DNA of 61,942 nucleotides, counting the filler, from Candidatus Zapsychrus exili (lineage in GTDB: Bacteria; Omnitrophota; Gorgyraeia; Zapsychrales; Zapsychraceae), in the NCBI GenBank assembly GCA_030765585.1. It is 3 parts of 3 records of this genome, joined end to end, with 100 filler letters (N's around TTAATTAATTAA, not from the genome) between each part and the next. Parts side by side here need not be neighbours in the genome. Positions count along the whole stretch, not along the records: positions 28,034 to 47,848 come from JAVCCJ010000126.1; 2 more parts are not named here. The stretch is one strand, 5' to 3'. A program made the translations under genes and the position numbers. Of this stretch, positions 27,934 to 47,948 are shown one piece after another. Position 1 is the first letter of the stretch, and the number at the start of each line of letters is the position of its first letter. The notes beneath the pieces were generated by a model, which did no database searches, was not told where the DNA came from, and saw only the letters and a list, made by a program, of their open reading frames with translations.

Positions 27934-28033
27934 NNNNNNNNNNNNNNNNNNNNNNNNNNNNNNNNNNNNNNNNNNNNTTAATTAATTAANNNNNNNNNNN
28001 NNNNNNNNNNNNNNNNNNNNNNNNNNNNNNNNN
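27934..28033. other. Artificial contig linker
   Basis: 44 N + TTAATTAATTAA (stops in all six frames) + 44 N; identical to the linker at 47849. Confidence 0.97.
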
Positions 28034-41104: not shown

Positions 41105-42549
41105 TATTTTTTCTTTCTAGAAAATTTTCTAAATAATTTATTAATAAAATTAATACAAACAATACGTACAGCACTTATGGCTGGTTTTAATACGGCAAAT
41201 ATTCCATGTCTTTTTATCATTGGCCATATTCTCCACCAACATAAATATATTCGTATAAGCCCTTTTCTTTGTAGAAATATTACATCCTCTGGCTTTAAAC
41301 CATTAACCTCCATTACCGCCGATCCGTATCTTTGATAATTAGAAAAATTTGTATCAACTATTTTTAAACCAAACTGTTCTTTTTTTGCCATCTCAAACAT
41401 CTCAGTTCCTGGATAAGGCATCGCAACACTATAGGTAGCATGTTGTATATCTTTGGCTTTACATAAAAAGTCTACCGTTCTTTTTATACTTTCTGCATCT
41501 TCACCCGGAAGTCCAAGCATTACAGAGTTAATTGTCTCAATCCCATATCTTGCATTAAGCTTATTTGCTTCAATACAACTTTCCATCGAGATTTCTTTTT
41601 TTATAATCTTCCTAATCTTAGGATCTGCTGTTTCTAACCCAAAACTCATTCGTATTAAACCACAGCTTTTAAACTCTTTTACTATTTCTTCATCCCAAAT
41701 ATTTGCGCGTGTGCTCCCTTCAAAAGTAAAATCTAGATTATTCTTTTTTATTTCTCTGCAAAGAGAAAATATATATTCACGATTTAACGTCAGTGTATCA
41801 TCTAAGAAATAAATATGTTTTATATTTAAATCATTTACCAAATATTTAAGTTCTTTAATAACTTCCTCTAAAGAGCGTCTTCTAACTTTTTTCCCATACA
41901 AACTATTAGCACAAAAAACACAATCAAAAGGACAACCTCTGCTCATAAAAAAAGATGTATAATTTTTAACCCCTTGTAAAGTTCCAACAGAATACTTTTT
42001 ATAAGGAATCAAATGCCTTGCCGGCCATGGAATAGTGTCTAAATCATCGATTCTTTGTATGTCGCCGTGATAAACAATTCTGCCCTCTTCTTTTCGCATT
42101 ACGCCACAAATTCCATCACCCCTTTTGCCTTTTTCAAAACTTTTTAAGAAATCAAAGAAAATACCTTCACTTTCACCTATAAATAAATAATCAAAAATAT
42201 CTAAAAAGGCTTCTTCCCGAACCAAAGACGGATGAGCTCCTCCAACAGCAATTGGAGTTGAGAAATTGTTCTTAAGTAATGACGCTACCTCAGTTATTCT
42301 ATGAAAAAATGGAGTAGTGGCTGATAAACCAATTAAGTCTGGTTTAAATTGAGAAACTCTCTCTATTATTGTTTTATCATCAAGCTCTTCTACTTCAGCA
42401 TCTATTATTTGAACTTCCCAGCCAGCTTGTTCTGCGATAGCTCCAATATAACAAAGACTCAAAGGCGGAAAAGACGATGCCTTTTTAGCAATATTTTTTA
42501 AAACTCCAAATGTGGAGCACCAAGAAGGGAATACAAGTGATAGTCTCAT
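41104..42549 (-). CDS. B12-binding radical SAM protein
   Basis: PPLSLCYI and VGGAHPS (cobalamin-binding), SRGCPFDCVFC (CxxxCxxC), MLGLPGE, PYPGT. Confidence 0.92.
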   Translation of the reverse strand: MRLSLVFPSWCSTFGVLKNIAKKASSFPPLSLCYIGAIAEQAGWEVQIIDAEVEELDDKTIIERVSQFKPDLIGLSATTPFFHRITEVASLLKNNFSTPIAVGGAHPSLVREEAFLDIFDYLFIGESEGIFFDFLKSFEKGKRGDGICGVMRKEEGRIVYHGDIQRIDDLDTIPWPARHLIPYKKYSVGTLQGVKNYTSFFMSRGCPFDCVFCANSLYGKKVRRRSLEEVIKELKYLVNDLNIKHIYFLDDTLTLNREYIFSLCREIKKNNLDFTFEGSTRANIWDEEIVKEFKSCGLIRMSFGLETADPKIRKIIKKEISMESCIEANKLNARYGIETINSVMLGLPGEDAESIKRTVDFLCKAKDIQHATYSVAMPYPGTEMFEMAKKEQFGLKIVDTNFSNYQRYGSAVMEVNGLKPEDVIFLQRKGLIRIYLCWWRIWPMIKRHGIFAVLKPAISAVRIVCINFINKLFRKFSRKKK

Positions 42550-42575
42550 TTTTAATTTATTTCTTAAAATTTTGA

Positions 42576-42616
42576 CCAGTCGAAGCTAAATGCGAAAGCC
42601 TTTTAGCGAAGACTGG
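42576..42616. repeat. Hairpin element fused to the tRNA 3' CCA
   Basis: CCAGTC-GAA-GCTAAA-TGC-GAAA-GC-CT-TTTAGC-GAA-GACTGG; the final TGG is the CCA of the split tRNA. Confidence 0.75.
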
Positions 42617-42669
42617 CGCGCCTGAGAGGATTCGAACCTCCCAACACCCAGTTCCGAAGACTGGTGCTC

Positions 42670-42689
42670 CCTGCCTGCCGGCAGACAGG
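42670..42689. mobile_element. 20-bp palindromic mini-insertion within the tRNA D arm
   Basis: CCTGCCTGCCGGCAGACAGG separates ...GGTGCTC from TATCCAGCT, which are contiguous (GGTGCTCTATCCA) in the intact copy. Confidence 0.7.
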
Positions 42690-42727
42690 TATCCAGCTAC
42701 GTCTTATAACGTTAACACTTCTTAAAA

Positions 42728-42801
42728 CGCGCCCGGGAGGACTCGAACCTCCAACACCCAGTTCCGAAGACTGGTGCTCTATCCAATTGAACTACGGGCG
42801 C
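42728..42801 (-). tRNA. tRNA-Arg (anticodon TCG), intact, CCA not encoded
   Basis: Reverse complement GCGCCCGTAGTTCAATTGGATAGAGCACCAGTCTTCGGAACTGGGTGTTGGAGGTTCGAGTCCTCCCGGGCGCG; anticodon arm CCAGT-CTTCGGA-ACTGG. Confidence 0.93.
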
Positions 42802-42895
42802 TTAAACTAGTAAATCCATCAAGTCCAGACCGAAATGTCAGGACAAGCGCATAAAAATAACATTTTCTTCACAAAAAACATTGCAACATCCAGCT

Positions 42896-42937
42896 TCCGC
42901 CACAATAGATGGCGGATTCGCCAATCTGTTTGGCGAA
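42896..42937. mobile_element. Two tandem 21-bp palindromic mini-insertions between tRNA positions 13 and 14
   Basis: TCCGCCA-CAATAGA-TGGCGGA and TTCGCCA-ATCTGTT-TGGCGAA between ATCCAGCT and GAGCTACAGGCGC. Confidence 0.7.
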
Positions 42938-43182
42938 GAGCTACAGGCGCTTAATCTAAATTACATACTGGTTGAAATCGCACGCTCTGTTTTATCTTAA
43001 AATCACACAAACAGAAAACAGGCAAGCGCTTAATTTATTCGTAGCAAACATCATCACAATCTTCATTGTTTGCGACAACCAAATTTACATCTCTTTTGTT
43101 ATTTAAATTAACTTTGAATAATTTTATATAAAAAAATACTGATAAAGAAATAAAGAAACAAATTATAGCAATAATAGAAAAT

Positions 43183-44097
43183 TTATTTATCTTCACTTTT
43201 TAATCTTTCTACAGCTTCTTTCATTTCTTCATATGAAGATTGATGAGTTTCTATTACCTTCATTACTGAATCATCAAAATAATGTATTATAGAGCCTATA
43301 TTCATGTCACCAACAAATGGAGCTTTATGATCTCTTCTTTTTTTCATACCATGAATATGAACTCCAATCAATTTGTCCTTATATGCATCCAATGCCTCTT
43401 TCTGAGAAAAAATTCCCAACCTTTCGTTCATTTCAGCATGTCCTAAATCGTGCCAATAATACATACCTTTGCTGTTAAAACGAGAAAGAAAATATCCTAT
43501 CTCATCAAAATTAGGAATTTCCAGTGGATAGTATCTTGTTTCAAGCCCTATCTTTATTCCTTGGCTTTTGGCATAGTCACAAACAACCTCAAAACTTTTA
43601 TCTAATGCCTTTATGTGCTCAGGCGACTTATCTTTTCTTATCTTTAATATGCGAGATTTTTCCTGTTCAAATTCTTCTGTTTTAAACTTTCCGTCCATAT
43701 ACAAATCAAATAAATATTTTGATCTTATATCCTGATCTATATCAACATCTCCTGCATGTAGCACAACAACAGGACAATCAAATTTCTTAGCTGTATCTAT
43801 TGTATTTTTCGTCCAACAAACAGCCTTTTGCCTCTCATCTTCATCTAAAGAAGACAGACGATAATAATTAGAATTATGTCTAGGCGATATCTCATCATCA
43901 GGGACAGGACAAAAATTATGAACACTTACAACTTTGATATTTAATTCTTTAACAAAACCATAAAGCTGATCTAAGTGCTCTTTGGTAATAGAATAATTTA
44001 TTTCAATGGCGTCTATTCCCAAATCCTTTACCTGACAAAGCCATGCTTTTATATCATTATCGGGTTTATAATTCCAAGATGTAGAAATTGCTAACAT
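43183..44097 (-). CDS. Sugar-phosphate isomerase/epimerase (AP endonuclease 2 TIM-barrel) family
   Basis: SVHNFCP, VVLHAG, IGLETR, WHDLGH, GVHIHG, DHKAP metal-site pattern. Confidence 0.8.
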   Translation of the reverse strand: MLAISTSWNYKPDNDIKAWLCQVKDLGIDAIEINYSITKEHLDQLYGFVKELNIKVVSVHNFCPVPDDEISPRHNSNYYRLSSLDEDERQKAVCWTKNTIDTAKKFDCPVVVLHAGDVDIDQDIRSKYLFDLYMDGKFKTEEFEQEKSRILKIRKDKSPEHIKALDKSFEVVCDYAKSQGIKIGLETRYYPLEIPNFDEIGYFLSRFNSKGMYYWHDLGHAEMNERLGIFSQKEALDAYKDKLIGVHIHGMKKRRDHKAPFVGDMNIGSIIHYFDDSVMKVIETHQSSYEEMKEAVERLKSEDK

Positions 44098-47848: not shown

Positions 47849-47948
47849 NNNNNNNNNNNNNNNNNNNNNNNNNNNNNNNNNNNNNNNNNNNNTTAATTAA
47901 TTAANNNNNNNNNNNNNNNNNNNNNNNNNNNNNNNNNNNNNNNNNNNN
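47849..47948. other. Artificial contig linker
   Basis: 44 N + TTAATTAATTAA + 44 N. Confidence 0.97.

Follow-up and report, generated by a model that had tools for sequence, protein, structure and literature searches.

How did an intact tRNA gene come to lie inside the broken pieces of another tRNA gene of the same identity? The question is raised by a locus in a 61,942-nucleotide (nt) stretch of DNA (hereafter, the window) from Candidatus Zapsychrus exili, a bacterium of the phylum Omnitrophota, in which a complete tRNA-Arg(TCG) gene (the inner copy) is enclosed by two pieces of a second tRNA-Arg(TCG) gene (the outer gene) that is broken in its D-loop. The source genome, G000, is a 96% complete metagenome bin with 129 contigs and 2.04 Mb of sequence; genomes of relatives are likewise designated by G numbers, contigs by C numbers, and examined loci by L numbers. 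The window comprises C52, C56, and the end of C59, with runs of N at 27934-28033 and 47849-47948, and features across these runs are not known to be neighbours because separate contigs are joined. The nested tRNA-Arg locus is on the minus strand of G000:C56 (19,815 nt). The explanation that we favour, at a probability of roughly 0.6, is that it represents the gene-less scar of a tRNA-gene replacement by a cassette carrying a GIY-YIG nuclease gene, later colonised by palindromic repeats.

All features of the locus are given here in the 5' to 3' direction of the minus strand. The 5' piece of the outer tRNA-Arg gene (42950-42938) covers positions 1-13, that is, the 5' strands of the acceptor stem and D-stem, and is of the type found in the intact genes of relatives. 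It is followed by a 42-nt double hairpin (DH; 42937-42896) consisting of two 21-nt GC-rich palindromes, a member of an Omnitrophota repeat family (fold z -6.06; a DNA fold as good was obtained in 0 of 200 shuffles). The first copy of the D-loop octamer AGCTGGAT (42895-42888; outer positions 14-21) marks the end of the 5' relic. Next come an 86-nt spacer, S1 (42887-42802; fold z -1.48), which contains a third leader and GCGCTTG start (42854-42844) with a weak hairpin and which ends in ~14 nt similar to the leader of the outer 5' piece, and then the inner tRNA-Arg(TCG) gene (42801-42728), in which CCA is not encoded. Behind a 29-nt spacer, S2 (42727-42699; fold z -0.52), the octamer recurs (42698-42691) and, together with one A (42690), supplies outer positions 14-22; the GT preceding it is also compatible with tRNA positions 7-8. 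A 20-nt palindrome (SH; 42689-42670; fold z -1.83) sits at the D-loop/D-stem junction, between GGATA and GAGC. The 3' body of the outer gene (42669-42614) extends from the 3' strand of the D-stem to the acceptor end with an encoded CCA, straight after which stands a 38-nt tail hairpin (42613-42576; fold z -3.65) that is conserved in relatives. Thus, the outer gene is interrupted three times: by the 189-nt segment between the two octamers (42887-42699), by DH, and by SH. Upstream of all these features, a leader-like TTAA and GCGCTTG followed by a weak hairpin (43033-43023) form a candidate for the oldest relic, with a sequence that matches TWAWGCGCYYG.

We compared the frequencies of these motifs with chance expectation in the window. 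The 13-mer of the outer 5' piece had one exact match; with up to two mismatches, four matches were found against 0.36 expected, all of them tRNA 5' ends. The octamer occurred three times against 1.98 expected, a count that is not significant alone, and it carries weight because of its register and context. The motif TWAWGCGCYYG, which covers the leader and the first seven tRNA bases, occurred six times against 0.31 expected, and four of the six (43033, 42954, 42854, and 42805) lie within 240 nt at the nested locus. This clustering suggested that, besides the starts of the outer 5' piece and of the inner gene, the locus holds two shorter relic starts (43033-43023 and 42854-42844). In the region 42400-43300, no sigma-70-type promoter was found (2.9 expected), and terminator-like matches were confined to DH.

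Which of the two copies is the tRNA? ARAGORN made two tRNA-Arg(tcg) calls on the locus, 42728-42801 and 42614-42692. Rfam accepted the inner copy alone (tRNA, full model, 64.1 bits), and the region 42614-42692 peaked at 18.4 bits (tRNA-Sec model, cut-off 47). When the outer sequence was rebuilt by a script from 42950-42938, the octamer, one A, and 42669-42614, ARAGORN recognised a tRNA-Arg(tcg) of 78 nt. This rebuilt sequence was 94.7%, 92.2%, and 90.7% identical to the intact tRNA-Arg(TCG) genes of G017, G021, and G012, respectively, and 89.3% identical to the inner copy, which itself was 86.7-90.8% identical to the tRNA-Arg(TCG) genes of G042, G043, G031, and G033. At the acceptor pair 6:67, the outer pieces have T-A where the inner gene has C-G. 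None of the outer stems shows decay: pairing is perfect in the acceptor and anticodon stems, and a single G-T pair occurs in the T stem. The tail hairpin region had 85-88% identity, over query positions 392-485, to sequences behind the tRNA-Arg genes of G012, G021, G011, and G016. The similarity of the rebuilt sequence to the G017 gene and the conservation of the tail hairpin in four other genera indicated that the outer pieces derive from one former gene of the native type. The earlier note on this DNA had described one tRNA-Arg broken in the D-loop, with a shared T-A acceptor pair, around a complete replacement tRNA; this description was borne out, and its coordinates for the pieces, the octamers, the 189-nt segment, and the inner tRNA were all correct on the minus strand. 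Judging from the sequence, the inner copy is the functional gene and the only working one, and the outer gene is a presumptive pseudogene. The encoded CCA was considered as a mark of foreign origin and rejected, given that about half of the 35 tRNAs of G000 encode CCA. Tails resembling the hairpin behind the tRNA-Arg CCA (L003, L004, L006, L028) were also observed after a tRNA-Ala in G000:C98 and after a 3' fragment in G000:C51.

We then examined the corresponding site in relatives. The AP_endo2 gene that precedes the nested locus was detected, at E values up to 1e-40, in 19 of the 45 genomes of the family. Exactly one tRNA-Arg(TCG) lay downstream at 10 of the 18 other AP_endo2 loci, usually before gcvT, and none had two. 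At the syntenic AP_endo2-tRNA-GcvT site, the tRNA genes of G044 (89.3% to outer, 80.0% to inner) and G041 (87.0% and 77.9%) are outer-like, and those of G042 (78.7% and 87.8%) and G043 (80.0% and 86.7%) are inner-like, the two types coexisting even within one genus. It follows that the gene at this site has been replaced during the history of the family. G000 keeps both types, one of them broken. A metagenome scan with the AP_endo2 protein returned six loci, one of which was 99% identical and ended inside the gene; the other five had no downstream tRNA. Neither an empty site nor an intermediate state was seen among the Logan contigs covering the nested locus. A viral origin was considered and set aside: in viral contigs there were 0 matches to a 44-mer of the inner tRNA, and in the viral contig collection 0 matches to the DH pattern. 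In several relatives (G020, G045, G041-G043), short tRNA 5' starts upstream are extended into hairpins with an acceptor-stem-like base. Such hairpins lie 35-75 nt upstream of the tRNA-Arg(TCG) gene at L185, L186, and L189 (G041, G042, and G043); the 5' arm opens with the first 7-9 bases of the tRNA, the 3' arm closes with the complement of these bases, and an A/T-rich run follows each, so that from their sequences they look like acceptor-stem minihelices.

A mechanism for such replacement is suggested by small GIY-YIG nuclease genes that lie beside tRNA genes. G000 has nine small GIY-YIG open reading frames (ORFs) above the Pfam cut-off, three of which are located no more than 150 nt upstream, on the same strand, of a tRNA-Glu, a tRNA-Ser 5' half, and a tRNA-Pro 5' half. 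The ORF at the tRNA-Glu (L194:1492-1758) encodes 88 amino acids. With the protein from G000:C24 as the query, a homologue was found in 155 of the 168 genomes of the order. We inspected the best 30 loci, a set that was chosen by similarity to a query itself located beside a tRNA and that probably includes many orthologues. They contained 34 matches, 18 with a tRNA within 400 nt and all 18 on the same strand as that tRNA. At 14 of these loci, the tRNA was 70-179 nt downstream of the GIY-YIG ORF, and in 8 of the 14 the initial 11-20 bases of that tRNA were repeated upstream of the ORF, with hairpins after them; one locus, L214, had a 3' relic too. The loci of sister genomes thereby define the intact cassette layout: a 5' relic broken in the D-arm, hairpins, the GIY-YIG gene, a leader, and a complete tRNA. 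The cassettes also meet the repeats of the nested locus. At L106, the order is a tRNA-Asn relic bearing DH, then a small GIY-YIG ORF with a frameshift, then an intact tRNA-Asn. In G035, a 5' half of tRNA-Asn carries SH at the same D-loop/D-stem junction as the outer tRNA-Arg gene, and a GIY-YIG ORF and an intact tRNA-Asn come next. The nested locus has the 5' relic of the cassette (42950-42888), which stops at position 21 and carries DH, and on the same strand downstream the complete tRNA of the same identity (42801-42728).

Contig C26 of G000 (L196, 1-1677; L198, 3497-5162) is 5,162 nt long with an exact 127-nt overlap of its ends and is therefore probably a circular element of ~5 kb; it carries a small GIY-YIG gene and then a tRNA-Pro 5' half ending just past the anticodon loop. 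Lone 5' halves that end right after the anticodon loop are also present for tRNA-Arg in G000:C100:600-760 and for tRNA-Ser in G000:C54 (L193, C54:5924-9142), the latter behind a GIY-YIG gene and a minihelix hairpin.

The palindromic repeats are widespread in their own right. A stricter DH pattern recovered the two G000 copies alone among the 45 genomes of the family, and a relaxed pattern was then used. It matched in 13 of the 168 genomes of the order, at 1-7 copies per genome, and a reversed-pattern control gave 0. In the species-level genome collection, DH was found at no fewer than 121 loci, in records titled Candidatus Omnitrophota or "uncultured Planctomycetales" bins. We analysed 94 unique sites. 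In 13 of them, DH interrupts the D-arm of a 5' tRNA relic that has an intact tRNA of matching identity next to it. Eight were identified automatically (8 + 4 flanking bases, at most one mismatch, in a copy of the initial 32 nt of a tRNA that was called at that locus) and five by eye (the nested tRNA-Arg locus, L036, L048, L104, and L121, the last with serial partial tRNA copies). The partner tRNAs are Arg-TCG, Arg-ACG, Lys, Met, Pro, Val, Trp, Thr, and Asn. DH follows tRNA position 8, 12, 13, 17, or 18, the relic stops 4-10 nt further on, and the intact tRNA lies 8-94 nt beyond it, or 268 nt where an ORF intervenes. The polarity was the same in all five informative cases, with the T..A-closed hairpin before the C..G-closed one in the tRNA sense. 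Removal of DH restored a tRNA at 0 of the 94 sites, which means that DH-bearing tRNA copies are always truncated or multiply broken. Target duplication was seen at none of the non-tRNA DH sites, and DH insertion itself therefore does not duplicate its target.

The second DH copy of G000 is in the same setting, at a tRNA-Lys on G000:C13. That locus begins with the first 12 bases of tRNA-Lys, DH, five more D-loop bases, the break, and a 27-nt spacer, and it continues with an intact tRNA-Lys(CTT), 49 nt including a hairpin, and a 34-nt 3' relic with CCA; its outer pieces are separated by a 26-nt gap in place of a duplication. Copies related to SH were found at three sites in G000 (the nested locus, C30, and C51) and at three in relatives (G035, G038, and G011). 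As families, DH and SH markedly favour the D-arm of tRNA copies that are broken. This concentration may be explained either by a preference for such DNA combined with selective loss of insertions in live genes, or by a share of the repeats in the break itself. Outside tRNA relics, DH was observed inside an RNase P RNA (129.8 bits; L031:1369-1786), inside a transfer-messenger RNA (tmRNA; 115.4 bits; L066:339-790) with a tail hairpin and a GIY-YIG ORF behind it, and inside two cyclic di-GMP (c-di-GMP)-I riboswitches (L039:1482-1616 and L041:1437-1559), all of them still above the Rfam cut-offs. Three Y1_Tnp genes in G000 are flanked by hairpins other than DH or SH, and no flanking RAYT gene was found. 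The idea that DH represents the fused termini of GIY-YIG cassettes was also considered and is not supported.

By analogy with the GIY-YIG loci, we infer that the nested tRNA-Arg locus arose by the same route. A GIY-YIG nuclease would have broken a resident tRNA gene of the outer type in its D-arm. Repair with donor DNA would then have installed the linked replacement tRNA of the second sequence type, leaving the displaced ends of the old gene behind. The nuclease gene would subsequently have decayed or been lost, and DH and SH would have inserted into the dead pieces. Several points weigh against this explanation. The nested locus has no GIY-YIG ORF or remnant: the best hidden Markov model match in six frames of 42550-43182 had an E value of 0.42 and a negative score, and with no such ORF in the 86 nt of S1 the locus can be at most a gene-less remnant. 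S1 and S2 had no similarity by BLAST in 40 relatives and none by eye in 10 loci. An 8-nt duplication is not expected from a GIY-YIG cut alone, as judged from the 2-nt ends left by the phage nuclease SegB according to the accessible part of the report (PMC2330249). The sample of GIY-YIG loci is biased and partly orthologous, and its counts therefore overstate independence. DH was not found at the ends of GIY-YIG cassettes. The Logan depth across the nested locus is 2-3x. Finally, the order of events at this locus cannot be recovered.

SegB, a free-standing GIY-YIG homing endonuclease encoded within the tRNA gene cluster of phages T4 and T6, is the closest known counterpart. It cleaves tRNA genes internally and promotes the inheritance of its tRNA region (PMC2330249), and it also drives, through break repair, the segmental amplification of a tRNA gene (PMC13096335). 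As in the Omnitrophota cassettes, a GIY-YIG gene stands beside tRNA genes on the same strand, and the outcome for SegB, a tRNA region replaced or amplified, resembles what the cassettes would produce; the activity of the Omnitrophota proteins is a prediction from this analogy. The differences are clear as well. SegB is a phage enzyme that recognises a T-arm motif, whereas the Omnitrophota genes are chromosomal, encode ~90 amino acids, and are associated with breaks in the D-arm. Moreover, unlike in SegB regions, relics and hairpins are left behind, and the nested tRNA-Arg locus lacks a nuclease gene.

The earlier note had attributed the locus to a single clean recombination at the 8-bp core. 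Stated in full, a small mobile element of integrase or transposon type that carried a whole tRNA-Arg would have inserted once in the D-loop, duplicating AGCTGGAT, and DH and SH would have arrived later as unrelated events. A direct repeat of the core is indeed present at both ends of the insert (42895-42888 and 42698-42691). The octamers match exactly and keep the register, a full tRNA can be rebuilt from the pieces with no gap and no overlap past 8 nt, and the T6-A67 acceptor pair is confined to the outer pieces. Against this stand the two further insertions of repeat families in the outer gene and the two additional relic starts nearby. The layout recurs at other tRNAs, where the break falls at various positions between 8 and 27 and no clean duplication is left, as at C13 with its 26-nt gap, and the octamer count is not significant in itself. 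The absence of an adjacent recombinase, already remarked in the earlier note, was upheld: of 10 Phage_integrase matches in G000, none is on C56 (tyrosine recombinases were covered; serine recombinases were not searched). In the sister genomes, the gene between the 5' relic and the intact tRNA is a small GIY-YIG nuclease gene, not an integrase. No terminal inverted repeats were seen at the ends of the 189-nt segment, the segment and its flanks occur nowhere else in G000 or in the 40 relatives, and the inner 44-mer is in no viral contig. A one-time element insertion is thus quite unlikely. Classical tRNA-targeting elements use the anticodon loop, the T loop, or the 3' end of the tRNA gene, restore its 3' part, and carry an integrase; Williams reportedly described in 2002 which sublocations within tRNA genes integrases prefer. 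The nested locus resembles such integration sites in its broken tRNA gene, its restored working copy, and the fragment that remains as a direct repeat, and it differs in having mainly a 5' relic, a D-arm break, an 'element' of 189 nt, and no integrase on C56. That integrative elements leave partial tRNA copies is well known (PMC9897764). Alternatively, head-to-tail copies of tRNA-Arg may have arisen by tandem amplification, all except one then being lost by deletion and palindrome insertion, in which case the outer pieces would come from different copies. The four serial modules of leader and 5' start within 240 nt fit this scenario, as does the likeness, over ~10-14 nt, between the leader of the inner gene and that of the outer 5' piece. 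The GT before the second octamer fits positions 7-8, so that the 3' piece could be a copy without only positions 1-6 and five D-loop bases. Serial partial copies exist at L121, and amplification of tRNA segments driven by SegB is on record in the available part of PMC13096335. Yet the inner and outer sequences are only 89.3% identical, each being closer to genes of other genera, the spacers are not mutual copies beyond the leader, and the exact 8-nt abutment would be a coincidence. On balance, we regard tandem decay as unlikely.

Two other possibilities concern what the locus is rather than how it arose. The outer gene could be functional if the inner tRNA were excised from a common transcript, DH and SH removed, and the pieces joined or held together as a split tRNA. 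The lack of stem decay in the outer pieces agrees with this, as does the presence of DH within RNase P RNA, tmRNA, and c-di-GMP-I riboswitches that still score above the Rfam cut-offs. It is opposed by the intact isoacceptor between the pieces, by the acceptance of the inner copy alone as a tRNA, and by the failure of DH removal to yield a tRNA at any of the 94 sites; furthermore, no complementary leader and trailer were seen on reading the sequence of the locus. To our knowledge, no bacterial pathway removes three unrelated inserts. Archaeal split tRNAs (Nanoarchaeum, Caldivirga) are sole copies of their tRNA and are joined via defined RNA motifs by an archaeal enzyme. The nested locus shares with archaeal split and multi-intron tRNA genes the encoding of pieces of one tRNA apart, and it differs in its bacterial host, in the intact isoacceptor between its pieces, and in the lack of any sign of joining. 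A spliced outer gene, which the earlier note had mentioned as a less likely alternative, is therefore very improbable. An assembly artefact, either a chimera or a collapsed repeat, might be suspected in a metagenome bin of 129 contigs with such low depth at the locus. Salt-lake metagenome runs contain the DNA of the nested locus: Logan contigs cover 42450-42871 and 42843-43052 in run X1, which may be the source sample of the bin, 42800-43026 in run X2, and 42580-42730 in run X3, with 0 differences throughout. Every junction is thus bridged, in runs listed under three studies; in addition, repeats of 8 nt are too short to mislead an assembler. The check for misassembly proposed in the earlier note thus came out in favour of the published sequence, and an artefact is hardly credible.

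These comparisons return us to the replacement of a tRNA gene by a GIY-YIG cassette. In the literature covered, which excluded subscription journals, neither arrays of tRNA relics containing palindromes nor tRNA genes split by chromosomal GIY-YIG cassettes were found described. What is known are partial tRNA genes left by integrating elements and small palindromic repeats, and the nested locus is in that respect a variant of mobile-element scars. Small palindromic repeats of bacteria, such as REP/BIME and RPE, are well known (PMC3733652, PMC2229807, PMC3184786). Like them, DH and SH are short, GC-rich, and multi-copy, with compensatory stem changes, and some DH copies reside within RNA genes without destroying them. 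In contrast to them, DH has a low copy number and a sequence conserved across the phylum, 13 of the 94 copies sit in D-arm relics of tRNAs in one polarity, and no flanking RAYT gene was found.

If the favoured explanation is true, tRNA genes across a phylum have repeatedly been overwritten by tiny nuclease cassettes, each leaving readable relics. This would be a new mode of bacterial tRNA-gene turnover, chromosomal, aimed at the D-arm, and free of integrases. False or duplicate tRNA calls in metagenome bins, among them the second tRNA-Arg that ARAGORN reports at the nested locus, would be accounted for as well, and some small DNA palindromes would prove to have an unusual preference for structured-RNA genes. 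The nested locus alone is a decayed remnant; its value is that of a well-bridged example that keeps both relic ends. More tentatively, the cassettes may belong to an undescribed selfish system of Omnitrophota and related bacteria, a possibility that we consider doubtful at present, in which small GIY-YIG nucleases break the tRNA D-arm and install a linked copy, and DH and SH home in as companions. The linked replacement copy would make the cassette hard to lose. DH and SH would home in one polarity into the DNA of tRNA D-arms and into RNase P RNA, tmRNA, and c-di-GMP riboswitch genes, possibly moved in trans by the same nucleases, and the nested tRNA-Arg would be the fossil of one such takeover.

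The remaining features concern the surroundings of the nested locus and other sites in G000. The upstream neighbours on the same strand are XseA, a 66-amino-acid ORF, and the AP_endo2-like TIM-barrel gene; the 66-amino-acid ORF is taken to be XseB from its position beside XseA. The downstream neighbour is a B12-binding radical SAM gene. No more than ~1 kb separates tyrosine integrase genes from tRNA-Ser(gct) copies (G000:C36 and C117) and from a 69-nt tRNA-Pro call (C18), and classical integrase-tRNA islands are therefore also present in G000. In G000:C77:11480-11700, a 10-12-nt tRNA-Cys 5' relic with a different GC-rich hairpin is located 55 nt upstream of an intact tRNA-Cys, and the leader of the relic is near-identical to that of the intact gene. 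In G000:C63:1500-1900, the last 17 nt of tRNA-Arg(TCT) and a 46-nt trailer are duplicated with a 35-nt GC-rich element between the copies, and a similar element precedes a lone tRNA-Arg 3' fragment in G000:C51:150-450.

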